Source: Deltaproteobacteria bacterium
GTDB taxonomy: Bacteria; Myxococcota; SpSt-1050; JACRCP01
DNA: 64,000 bases
Direction: 5' to 3'
Assembly: GCA_016218965.1 (NCBI GenBank)
Contig: JACRCP010000248.1
Coordinates: forward strand, 10,517 to 74,516
Position numbers and translations under genes: made by a program
Shown: in pieces, positions 11,605-59,601 of the stretch
Position numbering within the stretch: the first letter of the stretch is position 1
Layout of the letters: every line of letters begins with the position of its first letter
Notes under the pieces: generated by a model
Told to the model about the DNA's origin: nothing
The model's input: the letters and a program-made list of their open reading frames with translations, nothing else
Databases searched by the model: none

Positions 11605-11756
11605 CCGTGTTGTCGCACCCGTTGTGTGGTTCGTGATTGCCGACTCCACGACATTGGCGTTCGACATCCGGGCCGCACAAACCTGCCCAAAATCCCTTTC
11701 ATATGGTATATTTGTAAAAGTTGCCTGAACTTGAGACGGCATTCCCGGAGGTTGTC

Positions 11757-19193: not shown

Positions 19194-20253
<1,060 letters not shown>

Positions 20254-20255
<2 letters not shown>

Positions 20256-36427: not shown

Positions 36428-36488
36428 CCGGCAACACGTCCCCGCATATTATTTCACAAAACCCCCAACCGTTGTATTATACACCATC

Positions 36489-44022: not shown

Positions 44023-44176
44023 CGACGCGGATTTTAGGGCGGTCCGCGTCATTTGGCAACGCTTCGGTCCGCGCCAACGGTCCGTTTCGACCAGCGAGTT
44101 CGCAGATCCTTCTCATTTGACACCACGGGTGCCTGTCTATAAGATCGGTTCCGACAGACGGCCAAGAAGGGCACCG

Positions 44177-44866
44177 ATGCTGAACAGCCTTGACGAAATC
44201 CGCGATCGCATTGTCCGGTCGTACGACCCGGAACGGATAATCCTTTTCGGGTCGTGGGCGCGGGGCGAGGCAGACGAAACTAGTGATGTCGATTTGCTGG
44301 TCATCAAGGACACCGCGGCCAGGCCGCTCGATCGCCGCTGCACCGTGGAAAAAATCCTTCTTGATAGAGACGTGCCGCTGGACCTTCTCGTCTACACGCC
44401 GGCAGAGGTCCGCTACCTGTATTCCATCGGGAGTCCGTTTATCGAAGACGTCATGGAAACCGGGAGGGTCCTGTACATGCGGAAGGCGACGGAAAGCTGG
44501 GTCGGGGACAGCGAAGAAGAGTTGAGAACCGCACAAGTGCTGATCGAACACGACAGATTCAGGGGCGTCTGTTACCACAGCCAGCAGTGCGTCGAGAAAG
44601 GACTCAAGGCGGCGATCATCGAGAAAGGCAGCCGTCCCGAAAAGACCCATGACGTTCTTGAGCTTCTGAAGGAGGCCCGCAACCTGGGGTTCGAGATCCC
44701 CCTTGAGATGGATGACGCGGTCTTCCTGAACAGCATCTACAAGGGAAGATACCCGACCGAAGAGGGCCTTCTCCCGCACGGCGACCCGTCGCGCGACGAC
44801 GCCGAGCGCGCGTTGCGCGCGGCGGACTCGTTTTTTTCAGCCCTGCGCTCGTCTTTCGGTTGTTAG
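44177..44866 (+). CDS. Fused nucleotidyltransferase (Pol-beta-like MNT) plus HEPN-domain protein
   Basis: N-terminal GS...D.D NTase motif (FGSWARGEADETSDVDLLV). The C-terminal helical domain has an Rx4-6H-like element (RPEKTHD). The architecture resembles fused MntA-HepT or kanamycin-nucleotidyltransferase-type proteins. Confidence 0.7.
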   Translation: MLNSLDEIRDRIVRSYDPERIILFGSWARGEADETSDVDLLVIKDTAARPLDRRCTVEKILLDRDVPLDLLVYTPAEVRYLYSIGSPFIEDVMETGRVLYMRKATESWVGDSEEELRTAQVLIEHDRFRGVCYHSQQCVEKGLKAAIIEKGSRPEKTHDVLELLKEARNLGFEIPLEMDDAVFLNSIYKGRYPTEEGLLPHGDPSRDDAERALRAADSFFSALRSSFGC

Positions 44867-44999
44867 TTTTTTTGGGGCACGCGCGTTTTTGGCACGCCCG
44901 TTTTTGCGCCTTTACAGCGCCTTTTTGTTACATATAATGTGGGCGACGGAATGTTGAAGGACAATCCCACCAGTACACCCACCATGGAGCCCAGAGGTC

Positions 45000-46727
45000 A
45001 TGGCTGACAGCAGGGCCGACCTGGCCCGCATCGATCTGGCCGCATCGATCGATCAGAAGGACTTCACCGCGCTTCCGCTCCAGCGGAGGCTCGAGCTGCT
45101 CCCGTACCTGCCGCCGTCAAGAAGGCGCAACTACGTCCTGGCCTGCGAGGACTCGAAGGCCCTCGTTGAGGCCATGCAACCGCAGGACCTTTTCCTTACG
45201 ATCAAGGAGATCGGGCTCCACGACGCCGCCGAGATCGTGGGGCTTGCGAGCCCCGAGCAGTTCCAGAACTGCCTGGACCTCGACTGCTGGAACAGGGACG
45301 TGATCGACGCGGAGACCTCGTGGCAGTGGCTGACGGTCCTGTCGGAGGCGGGCCTGGACGTGCTCATGGGCAAGGTCGGCGCCCTCGACTTCGAGGTCGG
45401 GATCGCGCTCTTCGCGGAGCACGTCAAGGTGTACGTTGCGAAGGAGGATTTCGATCCGGACGAGGGCGTCCCGCCCGGGAGTTTCACGGCGGACGGTGTT
45501 TACCACCTCGTGATCGACGCGTCCCCGGACCGGGTCGAACTCATCGAGAAGATGGTGACAGACCTGTTCCACCGCGACTCGGATCTGTACCTCCGGCTGC
45601 TCAGCGCGGTCCGGGACGGGATGAACGCTCCTGTGCAGGAGGAGGCCCTCAGGTGGAGGACCGCGCGCCTTGCCGACCTCGGGTTCCCCGACTACGTCGA
45701 GTCGCTCAAGGTCTACTCGCGGCCCGACAAGAAAAAGGAGCGGCGCGACCTCCGCTCCGCGGTCCCCAAGGGCGACGTTCCCCCTTCGTTTGCCATCATC
45801 CGGCACGACGGCCTGTCGGTGGTCCCTCTCGACGCCGCGGCAAGGGTCGACTCCGACGACGCGGCGGCCGTGGCCGCGGGGGCCGCATACCTTGTGAACT
45901 GGCTCGCGGTCGCCGATCGGGTGGACCCCGGCGATGTGACGCAGGTTCGCGAGCTGATGGAAAAGGCGCGCGGGTACGTGTCGATCGGGCTGCACGAGAT
46001 TGGGGGTGATCCGGCCAGGACACTCGCTTCGACGCCGATGCTCGACATCTTCAGAACGGGATTTGCCAGGGCAAAGGACCTTGCCGACAGGGCAAAAAGG
46101 ATCGTCGCCGAGCACCCCCTCATCGCGGGAGACAAAAAGGCCCTCCGCCTCGACGAGGTGAGCCGCGAGACCGTAGCGGCCCTGCTCCAGCCCAGGCCCC
46201 TCCTCTACCTCGGCGCGGTCAAGGACGGTGCGGCGGGCATGGGGCATTTTTCGTCCGCGCATGACGTCGCCGCCATCTCCGGTCTTCTCGACAAGGTCGA
46301 CGCCTCGGCCGAGGTATTCGGGACGGTGCTCAAGATATTCAAGAAGGACCTCCTGGCCCTCGATCTCAAGGGGCTCAACGTCCCGATCCGCGACGATCTC
46401 ACCGTGAGCCGGGTGTTCAACACCGCGGTGGCGCAGAAGGCGCTGAAAGACGCCTTCGTCCTTGAGCCCGTCGCAGCCGGTGACCTCGCAAAACTCCACG
46501 GCCTTCTCTTCGTGCGGTCCGGAGACGGATGGGACATCGCGCCGTCGGCGGCTGAGACCGTCAAAGACATCATGGAAGTGGTCGAACGGAAGCGCCCCGA
46601 CCTCCGCCGGCCCGCCATGCAGTTCATGAACGCCTGCCTCGAGGACCTGCGCGACAGTCTCGCCCACGTGGACTTCTCGAAAGAGGTCAAACCCGACTTC
46701 ATCGGGTCGCTCATCATCAGGAAATGA
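45000..46727 (+). CDS. Hypothetical protein (575 aa, alpha-helical, no recognised motif; possibly a Myxococcota-restricted DUF)
   Basis: Long open frame with coding-like GC3 bias, ATGA-coupled to the downstream DUF72 gene. Confidence 0.65.
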   Translation: MADSRADLARIDLAASIDQKDFTALPLQRRLELLPYLPPSRRRNYVLACEDSKALVEAMQPQDLFLTIKEIGLHDAAEIVGLASPEQFQNCLDLDCWNRDVIDAETSWQWLTVLSEAGLDVLMGKVGALDFEVGIALFAEHVKVYVAKEDFDPDEGVPPGSFTADGVYHLVIDASPDRVELIEKMVTDLFHRDSDLYLRLLSAVRDGMNAPVQEEALRWRTARLADLGFPDYVESLKVYSRPDKKKERRDLRSAVPKGDVPPSFAIIRHDGLSVVPLDAAARVDSDDAAAVAAGAAYLVNWLAVADRVDPGDVTQVRELMEKARGYVSIGLHEIGGDPARTLASTPMLDIFRTGFARAKDLADRAKRIVAEHPLIAGDKKALRLDEVSRETVAALLQPRPLLYLGAVKDGAAGMGHFSSAHDVAAISGLLDKVDASAEVFGTVLKIFKKDLLALDLKGLNVPIRDDLTVSRVFNTAVAQKALKDAFVLEPVAAGDLAKLHGLLFVRSGDGWDIAPSAAETVKDIMEVVERKRPDLRRPAMQFMNACLEDLRDSLAHVDFSKEVKPDFIGSLIIRK

Positions 46728-47533
46728 CAGTCATGCCCTGCCGCGTGTACATCGGCACGTCGGGCTATTCGTACGCCGATTGGCGGGGGGTGTTCTACCC
46801 GCCTTCGCTCGCCCAATCATCATTTTTGGAATTTTACTCCCGCCGGTTTCCCTGCGTCGAGTTGAACTACACCTACTACCGGATGCCCGACGCCGAAACG
46901 CTTTCGCGGATGGAGCAGAAGACCCCCGCGGGCTTCATCTTCACAATCAAGGCCCACCGCGAGATGACGCACGAGATTGACGACGTCAAGGCCGTGGAGA
47001 TCTGCAACCTGTACCTGAATGCCCTGGAACCGCTTGCTCGTGCGGGGAAACTCGGCTGCGTTCTCTTGCAGTTCCCGACGTCGTTTCACTACACCGACGC
47101 GAACCGCCGGCGCCTTGCAAAGCTCCTGGATATGCTCTCTTCATTGCCGCTGGCGGTGGAGTTTCGCGGGGGGGACTGGCTTCGTGACAGGGTCTACACG
47201 GGCCTGACGAAAAAGAACGCCGCGTTCGTCTGTGTGGACGAGCCGGCCCTTCCCGGGCTCATCCCCCCGCTGGAAGTCGTGACCGCGGATATCGGCTACG
47301 TCCGTTTCCACGGCCGGAACGGCGAAAACTGGTGGAGCGGCGACTCGGCGTCCCGCTACGACTACCGCTACACCGCGGCCGAGCTTGGCGAGTGGGCCCC
47401 GCGCCTGAAAAAAATCGCCTCGGAGACCGAAAAGGCCTTTGTCTTCATGAACAACCACTGGCAGGGCAAGGCCGCCGAAGCCGCCGTGATGCTCAAGGAG
47501 ATCCTCGAAAACGAGGGCCTCGAAACGGCATGA
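46724..47533 (+). CDS. DUF72 (UPF0759/TM1631-like) family protein
   Basis: N-terminal 'YIGTSGYSYADW' and the 'RFHGRN' region typical of DUF72. Confidence 0.8.
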   Translation: MTVMPCRVYIGTSGYSYADWRGVFYPPSLAQSSFLEFYSRRFPCVELNYTYYRMPDAETLSRMEQKTPAGFIFTIKAHREMTHEIDDVKAVEICNLYLNALEPLARAGKLGCVLLQFPTSFHYTDANRRRLAKLLDMLSSLPLAVEFRGGDWLRDRVYTGLTKKNAAFVCVDEPALPGLIPPLEVVTADIGYVRFHGRNGENWWSGDSASRYDYRYTAAELGEWAPRLKKIASETEKAFVFMNNHWQGKAAEAAVMLKEILENEGLETA

Positions 47534-47621
47534 GGTCCGCTGTTGGCGTGAGGTCCGCTTGCGCCCGGGGGCCGGGGCGTGTAGGCTGGCGCGGCCGTCG
47601 AGGGAGTCCTGGAGGGACCGA

Positions 47622-48620
47622 ATGTTTGCGAGCGCGTATCAGCTGGGCGCCGAGTTCTCCGCGCGGGCGAGGCACTTCGGGCAGCCGCTGTTCGTGCTCG
47701 CGCACCAGGACGACGAGCTCAACTACGCGGGCCTGATCTCGCGGCTGGGACCCAAGACCCGCTTCGTCTGGGTCACCAACGGCGACGGCCTCTACCAGGA
47801 ATCGAACCTCGGTCCCGGAAAATACGGCGACCTCCGGATGGCAGAGGCCGTCCGTTCGGTCGCTGCGGCCCGAATCCCCGAACAGAACACTCGGTTCCTC
47901 AAGTTCTCGGAGGTCGAGATCTACCGGCACCTGGCGGAGATCTATGGCGAGGCTGGAGGCATCCACCTTCGCCATCCAACTTCGCCAAGGCTTCGTCGGG
48001 CAAGAGGCTACGGCGGACAAGGGAGGCTGGGGGCGGGAGGTATCGGAGAGCCGCATCGCGTGTTCTTCGACCGGATCCGCGTGGCTGTTCGCAATGCCCT
48101 CTTCGAGATCGATCCCGACGTCGTTTTCACTCTCGCCTGGCAGGGGGGCCAGCCCGAGCACGACCTCACGCACCTCTTCACGATGCTTGCCATCCACGAT
48201 TTCAGGCGCGAACGCGGCGGCAAGGTCGAGTTCTTCCACCTGCCGGAGTACGAGTACACGATACTGCTCGCGATGCGGTTCCACCCGTTTTACCGCGGTG
48301 TGAGATACCGGATACGCCTGACCGACGATGAGATGGCGGTCAAGCAGAAGATGATTGACGCGTACGCGTCGCAGGCTCGCCTGTTCGGTGAGTTCCGCAA
48401 GGTCTTCACATACATCGGCCGTGTCGGGCGGTTCGTCGGCGGGCCGAAGAGCGCCGAAGAATACCTGTCGACCGAGGAATTCGGTCCCGTCCCCGCGGAT
48501 CTCGACTACACGGCAAAACCGCACTCCCTGGACTACTTCACATACATGTTCGACCATTTCGAAGGCACGCCGGTCACGTTTTCCCGGTCCATCCGCCCGA
48601 TCGTGGGGACTTTCATATGA
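47622..48620 (+). CDS. PIG-L/LmbE-family N-acetylglucosaminyl deacetylase-like protein carrying an in-frame ~28-aa Gly/Arg-rich insertion
   Basis: 'FVLAHQDDE' matches the PIG-L (L/V)xxAHPDDE zinc motif. Residues encoded by 47958-48045 (GGIHLRHPTSPRLRRARGYGGQGRLGAGG) correspond to a DNA repeat that recurs downstream. Confidence 0.7.
   Translation: MFASAYQLGAEFSARARHFGQPLFVLAHQDDELNYAGLISRLGPKTRFVWVTNGDGLYQESNLGPGKYGDLRMAEAVRSVAAARIPEQNTRFLKFSEVEIYRHLAEIYGEAGGIHLRHPTSPRLRRARGYGGQGRLGAGGIGEPHRVFFDRIRVAVRNALFEIDPDVVFTLAWQGGQPEHDLTHLFTMLAIHDFRRERGGKVEFFHLPEYEYTILLAMRFHPFYRGVRYRIRLTDDEMAVKQKMIDAYASQARLFGEFRKVFTYIGRVGRFVGGPKSAEEYLSTEEFGPVPADLDYTAKPHSLDYFTYMFDHFEGTPVTFSRSIRPIVGTFI
47958..48045. repeat. 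Copy A of a ~90-nt repeat (AGGCATCCRCCTYCGCCATCCAACTTCGCCAMGGYTTCGYCGRGCAAGAGGCTACGGCGGACRAGKGAGGC...), in-frame inside the PIG-L CDS
   Basis: About 89% identical over ~71 nt to copy B at 48624-48728. Both end in a (GGAGGCN)-type heptamer tract. Confidence 0.7.
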
Positions 48621-48623
48621 CAG

Positions 48624-48728
48624 GCATCCGCCTCCGCCATCCAACTTCGCCACGGTTTCGCCGAGCAAGAGGCTACGGCGGACGAGTGAGGCGCGAGGCA
48701 TGAGGCAGCAGGCGAAAGGCGGGAGGCG
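48624..48728. repeat. Copy B of the ~90-nt repeat, intergenic; its 3' heptamer tract (gaggcgc gaggcat gaggcag caggcga aaggcgg gaggcgg) provides the ATG and first codons of the downstream Omp85-like gene
   Basis: Direct comparison with copy A. The tandem 7-nt register is visible. Confidence 0.7.
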
Positions 48729-50319
48729 GACAGTCACGACATTCATTGTTGCGTGGTGCCTTGCGGCTTCGGTTGCCGGGGCGGCGGAAAAGGCGCGCGA
48801 GCCGGCAGTACTGTTCCACGGCAACGTCGTGTTTCTCGAACCCGTCCTCTTGGGCCAGATGGGGATTGACGGCGCGGCCGTCCCGTCCGCCAGGGAGATG
48901 GCCGCGGGGATCGAAAGGCTTTACGCGTTCTACCGGAAGAGCGGGTACGTGCTTGTCGACATGCACTACCGCAAGAGAGGGCCCACCTGGCACGTCTTCA
49001 TCGACGAGGGGAAGCTCGATCGCATCATCATCATCGGCACGGGTTCGATTCGAACCGTTCTCATAAGGCAGAGCATCCACCTGCCGTACAAGGTCTTCAA
49101 CAAGGCACAGATCGAGAAGGACATTGAAGCCATCAAGAAAAAACACGGGATCCCCCGCATCGACTACAAGGTGGTCGAGCTCGAAGAGGTCGCCCACGAG
49201 GGCTTCCAGATCCCCGAATGGCTCACCGCCACGGGCCATGACATACTGCCCCCGGCGCTCTCGTTCGAGCCGCGCGCCCGCTACGACCTGCGCATCCACG
49301 TACGCAGCAGCGAGTGGGGCACGGGGTTCGGCTGGGGTCTCGACTACACCTCGCTGGGGATCTCCGCCCACGCCGACTACAGCGGCGAGTCGGCACTGTT
49401 TGAAAAGGACCGCCAGCGCCTGCTGGTGGCCGCCGGCGGCGACCGCCGGAGCCGGATTGACGACGGGAACGACTACCTTACGTTCGCACAGGGGACCGTC
49501 GAGGTCGAGTATTTCCTCCCGCCCATTGCAAAGACCCGCATCCGGCCGCAGTTGGTTTCGCGCAGCGACATCGCCAACTGGCAGCGCAAGGACCTCCCGC
49601 TGGAGCTCTATTGGTTTTTCAAGGAAGAGCTCTCGGCAAACGCGCAGTTCGAGCCTTTCACGAGTTTCACGCTCTCGCTCGGCGCCGGGAGCCAGTTCAA
49701 CAACCTTTTCGGCTTGGAGACTGTCGAAAGCAGACCGATGGAGGCGCCGGTGGCCGAAGGCCCCTTCCAGCGCTGGTTCGTCGCGGGGACCGTGGAATAC
49801 CAGTTTGACGAACTGATGCTGCGCAAGGACCAGCGGCACTCAGTCTTCGGAAAGGCCAGCCACTACTTCGGCGGGAGCCGCAACACTACGGGCGCCTTTG
49901 AGATCGAGTACCAGAAGGTCTTTCTGTTCGGGTACGACGACCTGACGCTAAAAACCGCAGGCCTCTACATGTGGGGCGATCCGGTCTTCCACGAGGAATA
50001 CCGGTTGACGTGGGGGCCGTTCTCGTCGAGCTTCGACAACATGTTCTACGTCCGGAGAGCCGCGTACCAGGCGGCGGACTACGGCATGTCTTTGTACCAC
50101 GAGGTCGTGACGCTCCACGTATTCTGCGACCTGGCGGCGTTCGGCAGGATTTCGAGAAAGGACAACTCCGAGGAGTTGGCCGGCGCCCTCTCGGCCGGCC
50201 CCGGCCTGTCGCTTCTTCTGTACGACACCTTCATGTTCAGGCTCCACTACGCCTACGGCCGCGCCACCACCGGCGACTCCGGCTGGGAACTAGGGATGAG
50301 CTTCAGGAAGGTGTTTTGA
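48700..50319 (+). CDS. Omp85/BamA-superfamily outer-membrane protein with one N-terminal POTRA-like domain
   Basis: Signal peptide. POTRA-like segment (IERLYAFYRKSGYVLVDMHYRKRGPTWHVFIDEGKLDRIIIIGTGS). Long region with beta-strand periodicity and a C-terminal '...MSFRKVF' aromatic terminus. Confidence 0.7.
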   Translation: MRQQAKGGRRTVTTFIVAWCLAASVAGAAEKAREPAVLFHGNVVFLEPVLLGQMGIDGAAVPSAREMAAGIERLYAFYRKSGYVLVDMHYRKRGPTWHVFIDEGKLDRIIIIGTGSIRTVLIRQSIHLPYKVFNKAQIEKDIEAIKKKHGIPRIDYKVVELEEVAHEGFQIPEWLTATGHDILPPALSFEPRARYDLRIHVRSSEWGTGFGWGLDYTSLGISAHADYSGESALFEKDRQRLLVAAGGDRRSRIDDGNDYLTFAQGTVEVEYFLPPIAKTRIRPQLVSRSDIANWQRKDLPLELYWFFKEELSANAQFEPFTSFTLSLGAGSQFNNLFGLETVESRPMEAPVAEGPFQRWFVAGTVEYQFDELMLRKDQRHSVFGKASHYFGGSRNTTGAFEIEYQKVFLFGYDDLTLKTAGLYMWGDPVFHEEYRLTWGPFSSSFDNMFYVRRAAYQAADYGMSLYHEVVTLHVFCDLAAFGRISRKDNSEELAGALSAGPGLSLLLYDTFMFRLHYAYGRATTGDSGWELGMSFRKVF

Positions 50320-50414
50320 AGAAGGCAGGAGGCAGGAGGCGGAAGGTCGGGTGAATCGCGGGCCGATTGGTGGTATGATATCGGCCGTACCGGGACTCCT
50401 ACGGAGGGCGAGCC

Positions 50415-52940
50415 ATGCGAAAAGGAATCACCGCGTGCGCCTGGGCGGGGTTTGTCGTGGCCGCGATTTTTGTGGCGTCGGCGTGCAACAACGCCGCGGA
50501 CAGTTCGGGCTGCAGCCAGGATCGGGACTGCGAAGGCGGAAAGGTCTGCATTCAGGGCGTCTGCCGCGCGCCGGGCCTCGGGCCGTTCCGGGACGGGGGA
50601 GGAGCGCGGGACGAAGGCACGGAGGACGAAGGGACGACGGACGACGGGCCCGCCGGAGACGCGGGAGACACGGTAGGACCTGACGCCGCGCTGGCGCCCG
50701 AGGCCGGTTCCGATGGGTCGGATCCGTCCGATTCGTCCTATCCGTCCGATGCGTCCGACGCCTCGCCGGACGGACCCGGTGACGGGTCGGAAACCGGCGA
50801 CACAGGCTCGCCGGATGCCGGCTCCGACGCCGGGGGAATCCCCCCCAAGACCTGCGGGCGGCCGGACCCGTATCCCCAGCCCGACATGACGCCCGAGGAC
50901 CCGGCGTTCGTCATTCCGCCGGAGTTCTGCCAAAGCGGCGTGTTCTTGCGTTTTGATTCGCAGAACGGCTACGCCCTGACCCCGTTCCCCAACAATTTCT
51001 ACACCGAGTACGATGCCGACACGTCCACGTGCATGCGGCTTGCTTTCGAGGGGCGCATCGGCCCAAACGAGGGGACGTTCACGACGTACCCCGAGACAAG
51101 GGCCCAGCTCGAGGCGCTTGAAGGTTTTTCGACGAGCTCGCGCATAAGCTTCATCGCGAGCGATCAACTGGAAAACAGCTATCTTGTGCCGGGATCGCTC
51201 AAGTACTTCGACCCCGAAAAGAGCGACCTGCCCGACGCCGCAATGATCATCATCAACGCCGACCCGGGTTCCCCCGAATACGGCAGGCTCCACAAGTACC
51301 TCGTCCAGGAAACTTGGGACCCCGACAGGGAAGGCGTCGCCGGCGAACACCTGCTTCTACTGCACCCGCTCGAGCCCCTTCTTTCCAAGACTAGATACGC
51401 CGCAATCGCCACCACCAGGGTGCCTACGAAATCCGGGGGGTGCCTCGGCCCGGACCGGCGGATGGCGATGCTTCTTCTGGGAAAGGCAAAGGGAGTCGGC
51501 ATCAACCGGTTGCAGCCGGACGTGGACCCGCTGTTTGACCTGCTTGCGCAGAAGAACATTCCGATTGCGAAAAAGGACGTGGCGGCGCTCACAATCTTCA
51601 ACACGATGGACGTTCGCCGCGACACGCTCTACATCTTTGACAAGGTCCGCCGCGAGACGGCGGCAAACCCACCGGACTACGTGCCCGGAAGCCTCACCTG
51701 GAGCTACCCACAAAAGACCGGGATCGGCGTCCAGATCAACGGCAAAATACAGGTGCCGACGTACCGCAATCCCGAGACGGGGCTTCTGGCGCTCGACGGC
51801 TCCGGCAACCCGGTGCAGAACACGACAACGGAGATCGAGTTCGCGGTCCGTTACCCAAAGGACGTACCGCCGCCGTACCGGATGTTCGTCTATCACCACG
51901 GCCTGGCCGGCAAGTGGGGCGAGTTTGGCGGGGTTTCGGAGCGCCTTGCGCAGGAGAGCATCCTTGCGGGCAAGGAGGGGTGGGCGACCGCGGCCATATC
52001 GACCATCCACCACGGCGAGCGCTGCACGACCGAGCCGAGGTGCAAGCCCGCCGACTGCAAGTCATGCGGCGAGGGGACGACGGCCGATGCCATGGCAATA
52101 TTCCATTTCTTCGCCATAGACGGGAAGAACTTCAACATGGAGTTCGCCCGCGAGAACTTCAGGCAGGACTATATTGACTGGCTCTACTTCATCCGATTCC
52201 TGACGAGGCCGCAGGGCCTGGACTTTTTGCCCGAAGGCGCGCCCGACGGCGTGCCCGAGGTCAAGGTCGAGCACGTGGGCTATACCGGCCTGTCGCTGGG
52301 AGGGTGCATGGGCGGGGGGATCGTGCCGCTGGTTTCCGAGATCGAAGTCGGGCAGATCAACGTCGGCGGCGGGGGCCTAACCGACATCCTGCTCAACTCC
52401 ACGATCTTCGGGTCATTCATCCTGCTCCTCAAACCCCAGGGGAGTTCGAGCTTCGACATCGACTATTTCTTCCCCATCATCCAGACCATCTTCGACCCTG
52501 CGGACCCCGTCAACTACGCGATCGGCATGTTCCATGAACCGTTTGCGGAAATCGGTGCGAAGGCAAAACCGGTGATCTTCGAGATGGTCGAGGGCGACCT
52601 GTTCGTGCCCAACTACACCAACGAGATGCTGGGTCGCGCCGCCCGCACCGTGCAAGTCGGGAAGCAGTACCACGACGTGCCCGGCATGGAGGCCGGGCCT
52701 CCCATCCCGGTTTCGGCCAACCTTCCCAGCGGCCTCACCACGGGGTACTTCCAGTTCAAGGAGTCGTGCACCGAGGACGGGTCGAAGAACTTTTTGAACT
52801 TCAACCACGGCGACATGCTCAACTCGCCCAACGGCGCAGTACAGTGGCGCCATTGGTTCAGGACGTTCTACGACACAGGGACGGCCGAGATTCTCGACCC
52901 GTACGAGCAGCCGCCGTTCGCGGGGAAGTGCCGGCAGTGA
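50415..52940 (+). CDS. Secreted lipoprotein alpha/beta-hydrolase (lipase/esterase-like), paralogue 1
   Basis: Lipobox (FVASAC), a long D/G/S/E-rich low-complexity linker, and a GYTGLSLGG nucleophile elbow with Asp and His candidates downstream. Confidence 0.75.
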   Translation: MRKGITACAWAGFVVAAIFVASACNNAADSSGCSQDRDCEGGKVCIQGVCRAPGLGPFRDGGGARDEGTEDEGTTDDGPAGDAGDTVGPDAALAPEAGSDGSDPSDSSYPSDASDASPDGPGDGSETGDTGSPDAGSDAGGIPPKTCGRPDPYPQPDMTPEDPAFVIPPEFCQSGVFLRFDSQNGYALTPFPNNFYTEYDADTSTCMRLAFEGRIGPNEGTFTTYPETRAQLEALEGFSTSSRISFIASDQLENSYLVPGSLKYFDPEKSDLPDAAMIIINADPGSPEYGRLHKYLVQETWDPDREGVAGEHLLLLHPLEPLLSKTRYAAIATTRVPTKSGGCLGPDRRMAMLLLGKAKGVGINRLQPDVDPLFDLLAQKNIPIAKKDVAALTIFNTMDVRRDTLYIFDKVRRETAANPPDYVPGSLTWSYPQKTGIGVQINGKIQVPTYRNPETGLLALDGSGNPVQNTTTEIEFAVRYPKDVPPPYRMFVYHHGLAGKWGEFGGVSERLAQESILAGKEGWATAAISTIHHGERCTTEPRCKPADCKSCGEGTTADAMAIFHFFAIDGKNFNMEFARENFRQDYIDWLYFIRFLTRPQGLDFLPEGAPDGVPEVKVEHVGYTGLSLGGCMGGGIVPLVSEIEVGQINVGGGGLTDILLNSTIFGSFILLLKPQGSSSFDIDYFFPIIQTIFDPADPVNYAIGMFHEPFAEIGAKAKPVIFEMVEGDLFVPNYTNEMLGRAARTVQVGKQYHDVPGMEAGPPIPVSANLPSGLTTGYFQFKESCTEDGSKNFLNFNHGDMLNSPNGAVQWRHWFRTFYDTGTAEILDPYEQPPFAGKCRQ

Positions 52941-53012
52941 CGCACGACTGACGACTCACGACTGACGACCTACGACTCTGAAGGACTGTCTCGCGCCTCC
53001 CGCCTCATGCCT
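52941..53012. repeat. Copy 2 of the composite heptamer element: (TSACGAC)x5 followed by (revcomp of GGAGGCN)x4, located between the convergent hydrolase paralogues
   Basis: 'gcacgac tgacgac tcacgac tgacgac ctacgac' ... 'ctcgcgcctcccgcctcatgcctcctgcc'. Its reverse complement has the same architecture as 28186-28345. Confidence 0.55.
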
Positions 53013-53025
53013 CCTGCCTTGTGAC

Positions 53026-55137
53026 CTACTCCGGGTCGCAAGGGCCGTCGCACGTCTGCGTAACTTCGCCGGTCGAAAGGAAGCTCCTCACCTGTTCTAG
53101 GACATTTGGCTGCCAGCACATGTCGCTGTGGACGTTGTTCTCGGCCGTGGGCATGGTGTTGTCGTCGGGGGGCATGTACTTCGCCGTCTGCTCCTTGAGG
53201 TGGTACTGCACGATCGCGGAGCCGCTGAAGGGCGACGCGATCTGTGGAAGCCCGAAGATGACCGAATCGCCGGGGGTCATCGCCGACAGGCCAATCGCGC
53301 GGGCGAGCATTTCGGTCGTGAGGTTGGGAACCTGGCAATCGCCGATCGACTCTTGAATTACGACCGCCCTCCCCTGCGGCGCGTCGGGGAGCCGGGACTT
53401 GAACATCAGTTTCGTCAGGTTCACCGGGTCCGAGTGGTCAAAACGCATCTGCATGAAGAAGATCCCGAGCTGGCGGATCAACGGGTCGGGGTATTCGGTG
53501 TCGAAGAAAGGCTTGATGGCCGCCCAGACGCGTGATCGAGGCAGCATGCTCGACCAAGCGCAGCCGGGCACGGCGAGGACACCGCGCTGCACCCTGTTCG
53601 AGATCGAGATGAACGACGAGCCCTGAATCCCGCCCAGGCTCACGCCGTAGTAGTAGACGCGCGACGGGTCGAGCAGGTCATGGCCGTCCGGCTTCATCTC
53701 GGGGTCGAACTGGAGGCTCCTGAAGGCCAGCTCGGTCATCACAAGGTTGTTGATGAGCGACTGCTGGAGGCGGTCGGTGACGACGCCGATCTGGCTGGTG
53801 TCGGGGATGACCTGATCGATGATGATCTGAAGGTCCACGTGCGACAGCCCTATCCAGTCGGTCGCAATCACGACTGCGCCCGCCTCCTGCGCCATCGGCT
53901 GGACGACGTCGCGTCCGATGCCGCCCTTGAGATAGTCGCGCCCCTCGCCGAAAATCCCGTGTCCGAATACGGTCAGCGGCACAGGCCCGGTTGCGGTCGA
54001 GACACTCTTGGGGACGATCATCGTGTACGGAAAGCTCTGTGATTGTGCCTGAAGCACGGGCCGGTGGTCCGCGTCGAATTCAAACGTGTTTTCGCTCGTG
54101 ATGAACGTCGGGACAGTGAAGTCCCCCCAGACCAGCTTCGAAACGTTTTCGTTCGGGTCCGTCTCGACGCCTTCGACGGTGTACGAGACGCCGTCTTTGA
54201 CGATCTCGAACGCCTTCTCCCGCATCGAGAGCACCGGGCCCAGCATCCACTCGTCGCTCGCGACCGTGAAATCCCACGCCATGAGAAGGTTGTCTCTTGC
54301 ATACCCGTTGGCCGAAAGGAACTCGAACAAAAGGTCGAAGCGCGGCCGGGCGTTCTCGATGATGTCATTTGTCGTTAGCACGCCGTCGCGAAGGGCCGCG
54401 AACGCCGGCGGAGACCTGTAGGAGTTCCCGTCGGCCTTCTTGAGACCATTTGCGAACGCGATCGCGTGTCTGTCCCCGGCCCCCATCGGTTCGAGCGGCC
54501 GGACAATGAGGGCGTATCGCTTCTGGTAGTCGTCGGAACGGTTGGCGTCCATCTCGGACATGAACATGACCCGCCTGCCGGTGTTCAGGTTGAAAAGGGC
54601 AATCGGGGCGTCGGGGGCGAGCGACCGCTCGACCTCGCGCTGGCCGACGAGCTGGGCGGGGTCGGCGTCGGCGGTGAAATGGACGAGTATCGGCGAAACC
54701 GGCGAAACGCCGTCGCCGAGGTTGACCGACGCGATGTCGTACGTGGTTTCGCCGTCGGCGTTCGGGAGGACGTCGCCCGGGTAGTTCAAGCGGACACCGG
54801 TAGGACTCGTCGCGTCGGCCTTCTCGAAAAACGAGCTCGGCACCGGGAATACGCACTCGTTGCTGGTCGCAAACGGGTTGCAGCCGGGCTTGAGGTCGAG
54901 CGTCACCCGCTCGGCAAGCCCCGCATCGGCGCCGGTGTCGTCTGCGGCCGCGGCGTCGGAGGCCGCGCCGCCACGGTCTTCCGTCGTCGATCCCCCGTCA
55001 GCGGGAGCTCCCGCGTCTTCCGTCTCCACCTCGCGCGCGGCGCCGCAGGCAAACGAAACCATGCCAGACAGGAGTACAAAGAGGGTGGCACGGACAAACT
55101 CGTTTGTCCGTGTGGGACTACGGTGGTTCGAGGTCAT
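53026..55137 (-). CDS. Secreted lipoprotein alpha/beta-hydrolase, paralogue 2
   Basis: Start at MTSNHRS...SFAC (lipobox), a D/G/A-rich linker, a GVSLGG nucleophile elbow, and the same domain order as 50415-52940. Confidence 0.75.
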   Translation of the reverse strand: MTSNHRSPTRTNEFVRATLFVLLSGMVSFACGAAREVETEDAGAPADGGSTTEDRGGAASDAAAADDTGADAGLAERVTLDLKPGCNPFATSNECVFPVPSSFFEKADATSPTGVRLNYPGDVLPNADGETTYDIASVNLGDGVSPVSPILVHFTADADPAQLVGQREVERSLAPDAPIALFNLNTGRRVMFMSEMDANRSDDYQKRYALIVRPLEPMGAGDRHAIAFANGLKKADGNSYRSPPAFAALRDGVLTTNDIIENARPRFDLLFEFLSANGYARDNLLMAWDFTVASDEWMLGPVLSMREKAFEIVKDGVSYTVEGVETDPNENVSKLVWGDFTVPTFITSENTFEFDADHRPVLQAQSQSFPYTMIVPKSVSTATGPVPLTVFGHGIFGEGRDYLKGGIGRDVVQPMAQEAGAVVIATDWIGLSHVDLQIIIDQVIPDTSQIGVVTDRLQQSLINNLVMTELAFRSLQFDPEMKPDGHDLLDPSRVYYYGVSLGGIQGSSFISISNRVQRGVLAVPGCAWSSMLPRSRVWAAIKPFFDTEYPDPLIRQLGIFFMQMRFDHSDPVNLTKLMFKSRLPDAPQGRAVVIQESIGDCQVPNLTTEMLARAIGLSAMTPGDSVIFGLPQIASPFSGSAIVQYHLKEQTAKYMPPDDNTMPTAENNVHSDMCWQPNVLEQVRSFLSTGEVTQTCDGPCDPE

Positions 55138-55160
55138 CAGTCCTCCTGGATTGACCGCAC

Positions 55161-56783
55161 TCACTCTCCCCACTTCGCGGGGTCGGCGACGACGGAGCAG
55201 TCAACCGGAACGGCGCCTGTGGGGTTCTTGAGCGGCGACCAGCAGTATTCGAAGATGAACGCGACCTCCTCGGCCTCGATCCGATCATCCAGCCGGTACG
55301 TGTACTCGCCGTCGGGGACCGAGGCGTCCCAGAGGTCCCACTTGTCCCACGCGCCCATGGCGTCGGCCGCCTGCCCCCAGTACTGCTGGATGAGACGCGC
55401 CTCTTGGGACGTGAGCGGGAGGCCCACCGACGCGCCATTCAGGGCCGCGAGCGCGAGGTCCGAGAGCCAGTTCTCTTTTTCAGTCGGGAGCTTCGAGTCG
55501 GGCTTGGCAAGGTCGCGGTCGAGCCGCTCGGCAAGACCCTTGAGAAGCTTTTCGGCCGTGACGTCCTGGCGACGCGTGAGCGCGTGCAGGATGGCCGCCT
55601 GATGGAAGGCGCGGATGATCGCCGCGTTGTAGTAGTGCTGACCGATCGCGGCCTCCTCGTACGCGCCGCCGTAGCCGCTTTCGCAGTTGTTTTTCAGGCG
55701 CTCGCCGTAACCCATGAGCGCCGAGGTGATCTTGGCGTTGCACTCGGCGTTCGGGTCGATCCATTCGAAATCGACAAACGACGCGAGGTCCTCGGTCGGA
55801 ACGTACGGGACGCCGTCGGCGCCCTTCGTCCTGATCTCGTAGCCGAAGTCGACGATGTCTTTGGCGAACCCCCGCAGGTATTCGTCGTTTATCGCCGCAG
55901 CGTCGCGCACGAACGCATCCGGTCCGTCGGCGACGGCATACGGGAGCCAGCCGGCGGTCCGGTAGATGTGGCAGACGTCGTCCTTGCTGCGCATGTTTTT
56001 GACCCAGATATTTCCCCAGTACGGGTTGTTGGGCACGTTGATGGTGTGCGTGTTCCAGTCCTCGGTGGGGTGAAGCCATTCGGTGTAGTCCACGGCCTTC
56101 CGTTTTGTCCCCTCGACGACGTACTCGTGGTTCTGCGTCATCACGGCCCGCGCCATGATGTACTTGTCGGGGTCGTCCGGCGAGAACATCATCCCCATCA
56201 TCGTCCCGACCTGACCCTTGCTGTATTGCTCGACGACCTTGCCGGCCGATGCGTCGCCGGTCAGAAGATACGCGGCGATGGCCTGCGCGAGCACCTTTGA
56301 GGTCGGGATCATGATGTTGTCCGGGCCGCCGTCCGGGCGGTGGTAAAACGTCACGAGGTCCCCGGTCTTCCGGGCCGACACCCCGGTCCACCAGACCATG
56401 AAGTCGTACTGGCTATGGCTGAGATCCTCGCCGTGGCTGGTCCGGAGGACCCACGCAAAGAAGTCGACCTTCTTGAAAAACCCGGTGATTTTTTTGGTGA
56501 ACGCGGCAATCTCGTCGGTGGTGAGAGGGTCACCGACGTCGGGGCGCGTGAATTCGAACGGCAGTGCCTTCGGGAGGCCACCGGTGTCCGGCGTCCCGGC
56601 GTCCGCCGTGCCCCCCGAATCCGGCGCGCCCGCGTCCACCGCGCTTCCGGTGTCCTCGACCGCCGCGGCGTCAGTGCCCGCCCCCGAATCCGCGGCCTCG
56701 CCGCCCCCCGATCCGCAGGCGCACAAGGACAAGACGGCCCCTGCGAAAACAACGGCGAGAATCTTCGCGCAGTTCGACTTCAT
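55161..56783 (-). CDS. Secreted lipoprotein, hypothetical (540 aa)
   Basis: Lipobox (LSLCAC), a D/G/T/A-rich linker, a Trp/Tyr-rich globular region, and the RBS GGAGGAGG. Confidence 0.7.
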   Translation of the reverse strand: MKSNCAKILAVVFAGAVLSLCACGSGGGEAADSGAGTDAAAVEDTGSAVDAGAPDSGGTADAGTPDTGGLPKALPFEFTRPDVGDPLTTDEIAAFTKKITGFFKKVDFFAWVLRTSHGEDLSHSQYDFMVWWTGVSARKTGDLVTFYHRPDGGPDNIMIPTSKVLAQAIAAYLLTGDASAGKVVEQYSKGQVGTMMGMMFSPDDPDKYIMARAVMTQNHEYVVEGTKRKAVDYTEWLHPTEDWNTHTINVPNNPYWGNIWVKNMRSKDDVCHIYRTAGWLPYAVADGPDAFVRDAAAINDEYLRGFAKDIVDFGYEIRTKGADGVPYVPTEDLASFVDFEWIDPNAECNAKITSALMGYGERLKNNCESGYGGAYEEAAIGQHYYNAAIIRAFHQAAILHALTRRQDVTAEKLLKGLAERLDRDLAKPDSKLPTEKENWLSDLALAALNGASVGLPLTSQEARLIQQYWGQAADAMGAWDKWDLWDASVPDGEYTYRLDDRIEAEEVAFIFEYCWSPLKNPTGAVPVDCSVVADPAKWGE

Positions 56784-56819
56784 CGGTTCCTCCTCCGGTC
56801 CGTGTTCGACGACCGCAAG

Positions 56820-56848
56820 AGTATCAGCCGGGCGGACCGGATGTCAAA
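56820..56848 (-). promoter_or_regulatory. Sigma70-like promoter candidate (TTGACA-17nt-GATACT) about 40 nt upstream of the 55161-56783 gene
   Basis: The minus strand reads 'ccTTTGACAtccggtccgcccggctGATACTcttg' with a perfect -35 and a 4/6 -10. Confidence 0.35.
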
Positions 56849-57026
56849 GGCGTGCCGGCGCCTGGCACTCCGTGTTTCCGAGGGTGTCGGCGATGTCCGT
56901 GGCACGGTTTCCCCACTATGGTGGTGTCCGGCAGGTCACACGGTCGGACTCCGCCCTTCGACTTCAGGGCTGCGGCCGACCCTACGTCGACCCTGCATCG
57001 GACCAATCAACCCCGCATCGCGGCTG

Positions 57027-57728
57027 TCACTCTTCGTAGTAGACGCAGACGTTGAAACCCAGCCCCGTGTCAACGCAGTCCGCGGTTTGGTAGCAATCGG
57101 CATAGGACTGGCACACCTGGTAACAAAACGTCCCGCCCGCATCGAGACATTGCGCGCCGGCGACGCACGAATTCGACGCCGAACAGCCCTCTCCGACGAC
57201 CTTGGCGCCAGGGGTCTGGCACTGTGGTTCCTCGCCTTCGCCGATGTAATAACAGTAGCCGCCGTTGCACGCCTCGCCCACGGAATAGCAGGTTTTTGGC
57301 GCGGGGACGCATTCGCGGTCTATCTCTTCGAGAACTCCACTCACGTATTCATCGTCTTCACAGGTGAACCATTGGAGCTTCCGGTAGGCCTCTTCCCTCT
57401 CATCTCCCAAACATGTCCCGGCGTCCGCGTCCATATCCGGATTGATCTCAAGGGTCCCGTCGAAGCCCGAAGCCTGTCCCCCGTCCGAGGCTTCGCCGCA
57501 CGACGGATCTCTCAAACGCGAAACCGAGTACTCGCACACCGGGCATTCCATGTTCTCACACGCGGGCTTTATGCACGCGTTGACGCGGATTTGGTACTCG
57601 GCGCACGGGTCGCAGTGCGGGCCCGGACCCGAGTCGGGCTCATTGGTCATGCCGAGGTGGCGGCAGGCGGCGGCACCCGCCGCCGCCGAGACGAGAAACA
57701 ACAACGCGATGGTGATTGGCGTTCGCAT
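57027..57728 (-). CDS. Cys-rich secreted lipoprotein (~26 Cys in 233 aa), paralogue A
   Basis: Signal peptide with lipobox (GAAAC). The 'CDPCxEYQxRxxxC...' arrangement is shared with 58909-59601. Confidence 0.7.
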   Translation of the reverse strand: MRTPITIALLFLVSAAAGAAACRHLGMTNEPDSGPGPHCDPCAEYQIRVNACIKPACENMECPVCEYSVSRLRDPSCGEASDGGQASGFDGTLEINPDMDADAGTCLGDEREEAYRKLQWFTCEDDEYVSGVLEEIDRECVPAPKTCYSVGEACNGGYCYYIGEGEEPQCQTPGAKVVGEGCSASNSCVAGAQCLDAGGTFCYQVCQSYADCYQTADCVDTGLGFNVCVYYEE

Positions 57729-57742
57729 GACCGTCCCTCCGC

Positions 57743-58885
57743 CTACCAGGCGTACTTCAGCGACGCACGGGCGTTGAGCATTCCCGCCTCGCCTGAAATG
57801 AAGTTCGGACCGCGAAGGAAGAACCCCGGGTCCACCATGAAGTCCATCGTGAGCCGGTCGAACTTCAGGCCCGCGCCCAGATAGGTCGTCATCGAAGAAT
57901 AGCCGGTGCGCCGCGAGACTTCCTCGGTCACGTCTTCGAAGGCGTCAACCCAGCGCTTGACCGCGCCCAGCCGAAGGTCCAGCCAGTCGGTGACCATCCC
58001 TTCGAGCCCGACGCGCAGGTACGGGAGCACCAGTTGCGAAAGGCTCATCTCGACGGTCTTTCCGGTCCAGGGGTCGTATTCCTGGTCGTCCGAATGGTAG
58101 TTGAAACCCGCGTCAAAGAGGAGAAGGACCGCATCGACCGGGGAGATCGCGACGCCCAATCCGGCATCGTACTCGATGCGCGTCGCCTCCTTTCGGGCCT
58201 TCTCCGGCTGCCTCTCCGCCTCCGCGCCGTAACGGAACCCGGCGTGGGGTATCAGATCAACCTCGTCGGTAACCGACGCCCGATACCTGCCGCGAAGGTT
58301 GAGCGCCCAGTTCGTGTTCGGCTTGTACACGTCGCCGCCTTTTTCGTCTTTCACGGTCCACGAGTCGGTCAAGACTCCCAGCGCCAGGTCGAGGCGTTCG
58401 TCCCACGAGAGGCCCAGGGCGATGTTGAACGCCGTGTCATCGCGCTCTGACTTGTCGGTCGGGTCGCCGTAGACCTTGTAGTAGTCCCGGAAAAACGCAA
58501 ACGAGATCCCGGCGTCGAAGCTCTCGCCGAAGCTGCGGCCGTAAAAGAGATTCACGCGGTTGTCGATCCCGTCGGCGTCCACGGGCGGCCTGAATATCTC
58601 GCCCGCGACGGGCGCCGGCGAACGGTCGAGGTACAACCCCACGACGCCCCAAGTCTTGCCCATGTCGTGCTGCGCGCCGAGCCTGTAGAGGGCGTTCGAC
58701 CCGACCTCGCCGAAGACCATGCCCCCGTACCCGGGGATCACGGACGGATACAGCAGGATATTGGCCTCGTCCTTGACGATCTCGTTTGACTCGCCAAGCG
58801 TGAGGACCCTCGTCTCGGTGGCCCACGCAACGGTCGTCGCGGACAGGACCGCCGCCACAGTGATTGCTTTGGCCAAACGTCGCAT
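57743..58885 (-). CDS. Outer-membrane beta-barrel protein (~380 aa)
   Basis: Signal peptide (AAVLSATTVAWA), amphipathic beta-strand periodicity, C-terminal '...ASLKYAW'. The start was chosen at MRRLAKAI, preceded by GGAGGGAGG. Confidence 0.7.
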   Translation of the reverse strand: MRRLAKAITVAAVLSATTVAWATETRVLTLGESNEIVKDEANILLYPSVIPGYGGMVFGEVGSNALYRLGAQHDMGKTWGVVGLYLDRSPAPVAGEIFRPPVDADGIDNRVNLFYGRSFGESFDAGISFAFFRDYYKVYGDPTDKSERDDTAFNIALGLSWDERLDLALGVLTDSWTVKDEKGGDVYKPNTNWALNLRGRYRASVTDEVDLIPHAGFRYGAEAERQPEKARKEATRIEYDAGLGVAISPVDAVLLLFDAGFNYHSDDQEYDPWTGKTVEMSLSQLVLPYLRVGLEGMVTDWLDLRLGAVKRWVDAFEDVTEEVSRRTGYSSMTTYLGAGLKFDRLTMDFMVDPGFFLRGPNFISGEAGMLNARASLKYAW

Positions 58886-58908
58886 GCGATCGCCTCCCTC
58901 CCCCCTTA

Positions 58909-59601
58909 TCAATCCCACCATTCGTCCGGCACACACACCGAAAACCCGCCCTTGTACGGCAGGCATCTCCCGCCTTCGGTGCACACGCTCGTGTCCTTGC
59001 AGACCTTCAGACAGTACATAGTCTTGTCGCGCTTGGCACACACAGCCCCGGGGATGCACTCGTTTGCGGCCGAGCAGATCTCGCCCAGCGGTTTGAGACC
59101 GGGCGGAAAACAATCGCAACTCCCTTTCTCGTAGTCGAAGTAGAGATAGCCCGATTCGCAGATGGACCCGGCGTTGGGGCAGTCGGCGGAACCGTCCGCA
59201 CCCTCCTCCCCGCAGTACTCCTCGATCGTGTCTGCCAAAGGGGCATCCTCCTGACAGTCGAACGACGCGATCTTCTCGATGTAGTCCTCCCAGACGCCTA
59301 TGGGGCAGGATTCAGGGGGCGTAATTGAGATGCCGCCACCGTCGCATTCAGGTTTTTGGAACCCGGCGATATTCTGGAGATAATCGCGACATACGTCGCA
59401 GTCCAGGCCCGAACAGGCGTCTTCGAGGCACTCATATATGCGAAGCTGGTATTCGGTGCAGGGGTCACAACGGATCCCGGCGTCGGTTTCGCGGCCCGCG
59501 TCGGCGTCGTCCGCAAGGCCGAGGTGCCGGCAGCCCAAGAAGCCGAAAGCAAGAGCCGGGACCGCAACGGCGAAAAACAGCACGCCCATCCGCTGCTTCA
59601 T
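58909..59601 (-). CDS. Cys-rich secreted lipoprotein, paralogue B
   Basis: Start at MKQRMGVLFF; lipobox (FLGC); a CDPCTEYQLRIYEC... N-terminus homologous to paralogue A. Confidence 0.7.
   Translation of the reverse strand: MKQRMGVLFFAVAVPALAFGFLGCRHLGLADDADAGRETDAGIRCDPCTEYQLRIYECLEDACSGLDCDVCRDYLQNIAGFQKPECDGGGISITPPESCPIGVWEDYIEKIASFDCQEDAPLADTIEEYCGEEGADGSADCPNAGSICESGYLYFDYEKGSCDCFPPGLKPLGEICSAANECIPGAVCAKRDKTMYCLKVCKDTSVCTEGGRCLPYKGGFSVCVPDEWWD

Follow-up and report, generated by a model that had tools for sequence, protein, structure and literature searches.

Where the gene for an Omp85-like outer-membrane barrel stands directly upstream of a gene for a lipase-like lipoprotein, the question arises of whether the two form a dedicated secretion system. 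Such an arrangement is found in a stretch of 64 000 nucleotides (nt) from a Deltaproteobacteria bacterium (contig JACRCP010000248.1, positions 10 517–74 516; hereafter the window), in which the gene for a 539-amino-acid (aa) Omp85-like protein (48700–50319, plus strand) is followed by that for an α/β serine hydrolase (hydrolase-1), and both face a minus-strand block encoding a paralogous hydrolase (hydrolase-2), a 540-aa lipoprotein and an outer-membrane protein (OMP) flanked by two Cys-rich lipoproteins (CysA and CysB). Type Vd secretion systems consist of one polypeptide that includes a patatin-like domain with a Ser-Asp dyad (PMC11116518, PMC5724010). From inspection of the sequence it had been proposed (the original prediction) that the Omp85-like gene and hydrolase-1 are a split, two-gene version of such a system, located in a recently rearranged accessory region dedicated to lipolytic functions. 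In this study, the region 48700–59601 was analyzed by comparison with related loci, domain searches and structure prediction. The results point, with a probability of roughly three in four, to a mosaic of independently transcribed cell-envelope units and not to a dedicated Omp85–lipase secretion system.

The adjacency of the two genes can be compared with a sister genome of ∼84% nucleotide identity, which is represented by two contigs, L002 and L133. These contigs are tied to each other by a cluster mate of the 540-aa lipoprotein (at least 90%), which stems from those Joint Genome Institute (JGI) samples that also yielded the Omp85 relative with 87% identity. The first contig, L002, carries DUF6178, DUF72, PIG-L and Omp85 (87% identical) genes in this order, followed by a MiaB-like radical-SAM gene; it is collinear with the window over 44107–50330, and the collinearity ends at 50330. 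The second, L133, is collinear with 62088–50403 of the window at 73–85% nucleotide identity and carries genes for a LysM peptidase, an acyltransferase-like 429-aa protein, an SDR, CysB, the OMP, CysA, the 540-aa lipoprotein, hydrolase-2 and hydrolase-1. Here, the collinearity stops 12 nt before the ATG of hydrolase-1, and beyond the breakpoint lies a divergent gene for a 715-aa secreted protein (11886–14033 of L133), not the Omp85 gene. Since one collinear segment ends at 50330 and the other at 50403, the 72 nt between them (50331–50402) are a rearrangement junction. This junction directly follows an array of GAGGCNN heptamers (50322–50347), with which it makes up a junction region of 50322–50402 that is assigned to neither strand. 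Judged from this comparison, the adjacency of the Omp85-like gene and hydrolase-1 is the product of a local rearrangement at a heptamer-bearing spacer; the earlier suggestion that the region had been rearranged next to heptamer repeats is borne out by the break in synteny. The main value of the analysis is therefore corrective, in that the Omp85/lipase gene adjacency seen here is a rearrangement artefact.

Reciprocal scans of related loci gave the same picture. Genome loci of the Omp85-like family (n = 40) were gathered using an alignment of a Myxococcota sub-clade, with flanks of up to 6 kb, and metagenome loci of hydrolase-2 relatives (n = 80; 25–57% identity) were collected with flanks of up to 10 kb. 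A gene of the hydrolase-1/2 type was found in none of the 40 Omp85-family loci, and none of the 80 hydrolase-family loci contained an Omp85-like gene, a PopA-like OMP, a 540-aa lipoprotein or a Cys-rich lipoprotein. The closest homologue of hydrolase-1 elsewhere (47%) is flanked by genes for an OPT transporter and an Abhydrolase protein and has no Omp85 neighbour, and the neighbours of the 123 metagenomic relatives of hydrolase-2 are variable. A dedicated pairing is thus disfavoured because the sister genome splits the two blocks, because the pairing occurs in neither set of reciprocal loci, because patatin and two-partner secretion (TPS) domains are missing from the Pfam results, and because hydrolase-1 has a −10-like element of its own.

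Three observations weigh against the reading of the region as a mosaic. The 95-nt gap between the Omp85-like gene and hydrolase-1 holds no predicted terminator, and read-through transcription is therefore possible. In another lineage (L005; Omp85 52%), the Omp85 gene again lies near a hydrolase-2 orthologue (74%), which is convergent with it in the order PIG-L, Omp85, PRK kinase, hydrolase; with the linkage present in the window and in L005, i.e. in two of three lineages, it might not be accidental. Furthermore, a different hydrolase, PGAP1/Lipase_2-like, follows the Omp85-like gene in seven of ∼35 loci, all from one Myxococcota sub-clade. Within this sub-clade, three loci (L013, L031 and L042) have the order Peptidase_S8 (∼850 aa), Omp85-like protein, PGAP1/Lipase_2-like hydrolase (∼275 aa), four (L012, L015, L017 and L023) have the downstream hydrolase only, and one (L014) has the S8 gene upstream and BioY downstream.

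Together with the location of the two genes side by side on the same strand, these observations count in favour of a split type Vd or two-partner system, in which the Omp85-like barrel would be the dedicated translocator of the downstream lipoprotein hydrolase and perhaps also of its paralogue. Such a system would provide a modular origin for PlpD-like autotransporters, and the two POTRA domains and 16 barrel strands predicted for the protein are the architecture of the TpsB transporters. However, the pairing is absent in the sister genome, where each of the two genes is on a separate contig and has other neighbours, as well as in both sets of reciprocal loci, and the candidate cargoes, as lipoproteins, are served by the Lol pathway. 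The PGAP1-like hydrolases beside other Omp85-like genes possess neither a signal peptide nor a lipobox, one of them showing no such N-terminal feature at all and another having N-terminal hydrophobic, transmembrane-like segments, and they cannot be outer-membrane cargo. Type Vd proteins such as PlpD and FplA resemble the locus in that a POTRA-bearing barrel of the Omp85 type occurs close to a lipolytic enzyme. They differ in that the two components are encoded here by separate genes, the enzyme is an α/β-fold hydrolase that has a Ser-Asp-His triad as well as a lipobox, the neighbouring position of the genes is not conserved and patatin matches are lacking, on which grounds a type Vd system was rejected. 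A type Vb system was likewise rejected, as the neighbouring proteins have no TPS or haemagglutination-activity domain and the immediate neighbour is a lipoprotein. A split or two-partner translocator is thus considered to be very unlikely, and the two-gene type Vd system of the original prediction, a pairing specific to this genome, is not upheld.

The Omp85-like protein itself was difficult to place by standard searches. Pfam gave only a marginal POTRA match (22.5 bits), covering the first POTRA-like unit alone, an NCBIfam scan gave no match and a sequence search of the PDB returned nothing useful. A word-indexed search found four relatives only, whereas an exhaustive profile search using HMMER extended the family to 461 representative clusters (E ≤ 1e-30 for 185), which with few exceptions are 500–560 aa in length and match end to end. 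The relatives clarified the assignment: PF07244 matches all four close homologues (best E = 2e-6), and the family profile matches the POTRA domains of BamA with E = 3e-8. Structure prediction using AlphaFold2 depended on the same relatives, as the four-sequence alignment gave a predicted local distance difference test score (pLDDT) of 31.5, while an alignment of 96 family members gave a usable model with a pLDDT of 92.3 and a predicted template-modelling score (pTM) of 0.85. The predicted structure consists of a signal helix, two β-α-α-β-β POTRA-like units (residues ∼35–103 and 105–201) and a 16-strand barrel (residues 208–537). The original prediction was therefore correct in calling the protein Omp85-like, but the single POTRA that it had described becomes two in the model. 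When the model was compared with the PDB using Foldseek, BamA, FhaC, TamA, CdiB and Toc75 were all matched with a probability of 1.00; these matches had E values of ∼1e-13 to 1e-11, identities of 10–13% and TM-scores of ∼0.45, and no subfamily was preferred.

The protein shares with the Omp85 superfamily the N-terminal POTRA (PF07244), the predicted C-terminal 16-strand barrel, and a long L6 loop, for which the family consensus includes (L/V)RGxF, a motif from which the window protein departs. The motif FxDxAxFG is located on a later strand, and the C-terminal residue is aromatic. It is unlike the superfamily in that, besides its low identity to solved members, the barrel is invisible to PF01103, PF03865 and NCBIfam. 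The two Pfam barrel models gave no match at E ≤ 10 in the four close homologues and none at E ≤ 0.01 in ten distant members, and there was no full match to an NCBIfam model among 14 family members. TIGR03303 does not match the window protein and gave marginal matches to the POTRA region in three of the ten distant members (15–22 bits against a cut-off of 297), while the ShlB-type Pfam model POTRA_2 was matched only at E = 0.026, in one of the four close homologues. On the evidence of the model and the profiles, the protein represents a genuine, divergent and unannotated clade of the Omp85 superfamily, and is not BamA, TamA or PlpD. A sizeable Omp85 family that is kept across Myxococcota has thus been overlooked by current domain models.

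The individual subfamilies were excluded as follows. The protein has two POTRA-like domains, whereas BamA has five, TamA three and PlpD one. The possibility that it is the BamA orthologue, which would have run counter to the original prediction, was rejected owing to its length of 539 aa, the POTRA number, the lack of a match to TIGR03303 or PF01103, and neighbours that are PIG-L and hydrolase genes and not of the skp/lpxD type. TamA was rejected because of the POTRA number and because a TamB-like (DUF490/AsmA-like) neighbour was found neither in the window nor in ∼45 related loci. The number of POTRAs and strands in the model would suit a type Vb TpsB protein. The model contains no helix between the signal peptide and POTRA-1, so that the H1 plug helix of FhaC is lacking. 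In addition, there is no TamB or TpsA neighbour, and the window protein has lost the Arg of loop L6. The last of these features was traced to residues 441–445 within L6, the loop that joins strands 11 and 12 (residues 427–452). The consensus of the family reads L-R-G-V-F here, and 77 of the 96 aligned sequences keep the Arg, while the window protein has F-S-S-S-F. This Arg is needed in BamA and FhaC. Its loss, together with the predicted absence of an N-terminal plug helix, would argue further against a dedicated translocator. The sub-clade of the window protein also lacks Arg462 and Arg467, both of which are kept in 77–83 of the 96 family members; the loss of the three residues suggests altered barrel-loop mechanics in this sub-clade.

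In a genome scan, the Omp85-like family was found mostly in Myxococcota metagenome-assembled genomes (MAGs), including those of Myxococcaceae, Archangium, Hyalangium and Myxococcus sp. Such retention is compatible with a second explanation, according to which the family would serve, in a lineage-specific manner, lipoproteins or the lipid homeostasis of the outer membrane, for example by exposing lipoproteins at the surface or by handling lipids. Its loose, recurrent proximity to lipolytic and lipid-related genes would then reflect a shared pathway but no strict operon. Both the window and L005 have the gene close to lipoprotein hydrolases, PGAP1/Lipase_2-like genes follow it in the seven loci described above, and genes for a lipid A acyltransferase, a fatty-acid hydroxylase and a BAAT thioesterase are found beside family members elsewhere. 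PlpD may serve as a precedent by analogy, as it indicates that Omp85 scaffolds can have lipid-related and not translocation roles (PMC11116518). However, the neighbourhoods are highly variable and share no common theme. In addition, the two independent hydrolase adjacencies among ∼15 neighbourhood types are close to chance by a rough estimate (p ∼0.08, assuming that 1.5% of genes encode α/β hydrolases). This explanation is accordingly regarded as unlikely, as is any looser functional link between the family and the hydrolases. A bolder version, in which the short Omp85 family of ∼460 clusters would be a previously unrecognized functional class with lipoproteins or the lipids of the outer membrane as its targets, as in the surface display of lipid-anchored hydrolases, is a speculative proposal of low probability. 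If it were true, the proximity to lipolytic genes in the window, in L005 and in the PGAP1-like sub-clade would be a trace of this function.

The gene immediately upstream of the Omp85-like gene encodes a PIG-L family deacetylase (47622–48620, plus strand; PF02585, E = 2.5e-11), in agreement with the NCBI name and boundaries. The order PIG-L, Omp85 recurs in the closest relatives (L002–L004 and L005), but PIG-L is absent upstream of the Omp85-like gene in L006, L011, L012, L135, L136 and the Myxococcota loci, and it does not accompany the family universally. Downstream of Omp85, L006 (51%) has an MFS transporter gene, and L135 and L136 (32–36%) have a convergent LysM-M23 peptidase gene.

Between the PIG-L and Omp85-like genes of the window lies one of two copies of an 84-nt repeat (47957–48040 and 48622–48705, plus strand), which are 85% identical and end in GAGGCNN heptamers; the repeat that the original prediction had noted at the Omp85 start is the second copy. 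Neither copy is present in L002, where the PIG-L stop codon overlaps the Omp85 start. The first copy lies in frame within the PIG-L open reading frame (ORF), to which it adds ∼20 aa. The second parts the two genes, with the ancestral overlapping ATG thrown out of frame, and donates the present ATG of the Omp85-like gene (48700) together with a Shine–Dalgarno-like GAGG. From its sequence, the repeat looks like a small insertion element resembling a miniature inverted-repeat transposable element (MITE). Heptamer-bearing repeats can thus insert in frame into genes, and one of them has donated a start codon.

Two kinds of heptamer array were found. GAGGCNN arrays are located at 48688–48729, 50322–50347 and 52988–53020 (the last in minus orientation), with 12 matches compared with 0.43 expected from shuffled sequence, and an ACGACTN array is located at 52944–52977, with eight matches in the window compared with none expected. 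The spacer between the convergent hydrolase genes (52944–53020, no strand) consists of ∼5 copies of ACGACTN followed by ∼4 copies of GAGGCNN in reverse complement; the heptamer repeats reported there previously therefore lie far above the shuffled expectation. The corresponding spacer of the sister genome (L133 9040–9280) is longer than that of the window and has inverted ACGACTN arrays at both ends with ∼130 nt between them, which could form a long hairpin, act as a bidirectional terminator or represent a MITE. Elsewhere in the window, at 28187–28341, related arrays of ∼4 copies of AGGCTGG followed by ∼5 copies of GTCGTGA lie within a 3820-aa ORF without breaking its frame and encode a low-complexity stretch that includes SRLTTDDAGTPTHDQRLTTRD; it seems that coding sequence can accommodate heptamer elements in frame.

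The transcription signals are consistent with separate units. A −10-like TGGTATGAT is located at 50371–50379, upstream of hydrolase-1. This TGGTATGAT/TGGTATCAT element, read by eye and without a scan score, stands exactly 35 nt from the start codon of hydrolase-1 both here and in L133. In L133 this element stands without an upstream Omp85 gene, and hydrolase-1 probably has its own promoter. On the minus strand, the candidate σ70-like promoter TTGACA-16-GATACT (56847–56820), which the original prediction had pointed out, is the best site in 13.3 kb, with ten of 12 positions matched, and is located 36 nt upstream of the ATG of the 540-aa lipoprotein. The region would then comprise three or four or more separately transcribed units, the products of which would be exported by Sec and then by Lol in the case of the lipoproteins and BAM in the case of the barrels. 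The first unit would consist of PIG-L and the Omp85-like gene, and DUF6178 and DUF72 may also belong to its upstream part; the Omp85-like family has no constant genomic partner. The second would be hydrolase-1, the third would be the 540-aa lipoprotein and hydrolase-2 behind the σ70-like promoter, and the fourth would be CysB, the PopA-like OMP and CysA. Throughout, we infer enzymatic activity, subcellular location and operon structure from the sequence.

The gene calls on which these units are based were made from an ORF list and a GC3-based gene map. The seven called genes of the region correspond, with identical boundaries, to the proteins HY897_15900 to 15930 deposited at NCBI, all of which are named 'hypothetical protein', and every gene named in the original prediction was found where it had been placed. 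Signal peptides can be read from the translations of all seven proteins and lipoboxes from those of five (VASAC, SFAC, LCAC, AAAC and FLGC), in keeping with the earlier description of exported envelope proteins.

Hydrolase-1 (50415–52940, plus strand) is an 841-aa lipoprotein with the lipobox VASAC and a GLSLGG motif, and hydrolase-2 (53026–55137, minus strand) is a 703-aa lipoprotein with the lipobox SFAC and a GVSLGG motif. The two had been described as paralogues, and they align with 24% identity over 665 columns (E = 1e-21). In an alignment of seven hydrolase sequences, HG495–496, Ser627 (of the GxSxG motif GLSLGG), Asp728 and His798 (hydrolase-1 numbering) are invariant, and all six full-length members have lipoboxes; the catalytic triad, the absence of which would have spoken against lipolytic enzymes, is thus kept together with the HG oxyanion motif in both window proteins. 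Long, acidic, low-complexity linkers follow the lipobox. No patatin Pfam model matches either hydrolase even at E ≤ 5, which agrees with the earlier statement that the plus-strand hydrolase is not patatin-like and carries a lipobox.

A distant relationship was found with VolA, which in V. cholerae is a lysophospholipase and surface lipoprotein (PMC3656444), and with Pla-1. The resemblance lies in lipoproteins of ∼700–850 aa with a C-terminal α/β-hydrolase domain and in local similarity in the nucleophile region, where the NCBIfam model TIGR03502 gives 33.9 bits for hydrolase-1 (E = 9.8e-9) and 14.7 bits for the paralogue (E = 6e-3). However, both scores are far below the curated cut-off of 383.9, and PF12262 does not match the two window hydrolases themselves. 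A profile search of the hydrolase family reaches the sequences P0161 and P0162, which contain PF12262 (Lipase_bact_N, a domain characteristic of VolA/Pla-1) and PAF-acetylhydrolase-like segments. The hydrolases are, by these profile comparisons, remote relatives of VolA/Pla-1 and not members of the TIGR03502 subfamily. Because of the invariant HG, Ser, Asp and His residues, the lipoboxes and the link to VolA/Pla-1 via intermediate sequences, both are most likely to be outer-membrane-anchored (lyso)phospholipases or esterases, and they reveal a VolA-like family of lipoprotein hydrolases that has so far been sampled sparsely. The 540-aa lipoprotein (55161–56783, minus strand; lipobox LSLCAC) is encoded 23 nt upstream of hydrolase-2 and has no match in Pfam, NCBIfam or the PDB. 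Its gene also adjoins hydrolase-2 in L133, and co-transcription of these neighbours is probable. The PDB likewise yielded nothing useful when it was searched with the sequences of the two hydrolases and of the OMP.

The remaining three genes on the minus strand form a compact group consisting of CysA (57027–57728, 233 aa), the 380-aa β-barrel OMP (57743–58885) and CysB (58909–59601, 230 aa), all of which had been recognized in the original prediction. The gaps between them are 14 nt (CysA–OMP) and 23 nt (OMP–CysB), and not 12 and 21 nt as had been given. CysA and CysB are paralogues with 32% identity (E = 3e-31), and 20 Cys residues in addition to the lipid-anchor Cys are invariant across the two proteins and their sister-genome orthologues. 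The OMP, which has a weak match to Pfam OMP_b-brl, aligns over residues 8–351 with positions 6–343 of the 366 in the NCBIfam PopA model NF053618 (E = 2.2e-16). PopA of Bdellovibrio (Bd0427) is outlined in PMC12228718 as a porin-like pentamer enclosing a lipid patch, with 16 strands, a plug and a radial oligomer formed through loop 8. The window OMP resembles it in length and in the near full-length profile alignment; it differs in scoring 60.3 bits against a cut-off of 150 and in having no direct match to the solved PopA chains. The OMP is best described from the profile as a distant porin-like relative of the PopA family below the profile cut-off. The PopA account, in the sections consulted, makes no mention of flanking Cys-rich lipoproteins (PMC12228718), whereas the OMP in the window is bracketed by two disulfide-rich lipoprotein paralogues. 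When the 540-aa lipoprotein, CysA, CysB and the OMP were compared by tblastn with 130+ loci, relatives were found in the sister contigs only. Because the spacing is tight and the order is kept in the sister genome, the trio is suggested to be one operon encoding a porin-like barrel and two disulfide-rich lipoprotein partners.

It was also considered whether the region is a horizontally acquired accessory island dedicated to lipolysis. Repeats at the junctions, paralogous hydrolases and hypothetical proteins with few database relatives would all suit such an origin. However, neither the GC content (0.62–0.65 in the region) nor the skew sets the region apart from its flanks. The ORF list and the Pfam scans of the region show no integrase, transposase or tRNA gene, with no dedicated tRNA scan having been run, and heptamer arrays of a similar kind also occur outside the region, within a giant adhesin ORF of the window. 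In addition, the block is kept in the sister genome with the same SDR, acyltransferase-like and LysM-peptidase flanks. As the composition is uniform and the same window contains mreB, PBP2 and cstA, as well as two giant adhesin-like ORFs, the DNA is chromosomal rather than part of a mobile island. Horizontal acquisition was rejected on account of the composition and the conserved flanks and is rated as very unlikely.

Several further features of the window and of the sister genome were observed. One of the two giant surface-protein ORFs (11718–19163, 2481 aa) contains PKD, Invasin_D3 and Big_1 domains, and the other (24986–36448, minus strand, 3820 aa) contains DUF11, CARDB and SdrD_B repeats; both adjoin mreB (19194–20255) and the gene for a PBP2-type transpeptidase (21602–23746). 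The 715-aa protein of L133 ends in an acidic low-complexity tail followed by GGCSCTSAGVR, a C-terminus that may resemble a sorting signal of the MYXO-CTERM type. When 43637–44866 of the window was compared with 14–2560 of L002, the sister contig was seen to have cas4-cas1-cas2 upstream of DUF6178, where the window has a HEPN/nucleotidyltransferase gene. Only 112 nt (44107–44218) are shared, and this difference is another local rearrangement.

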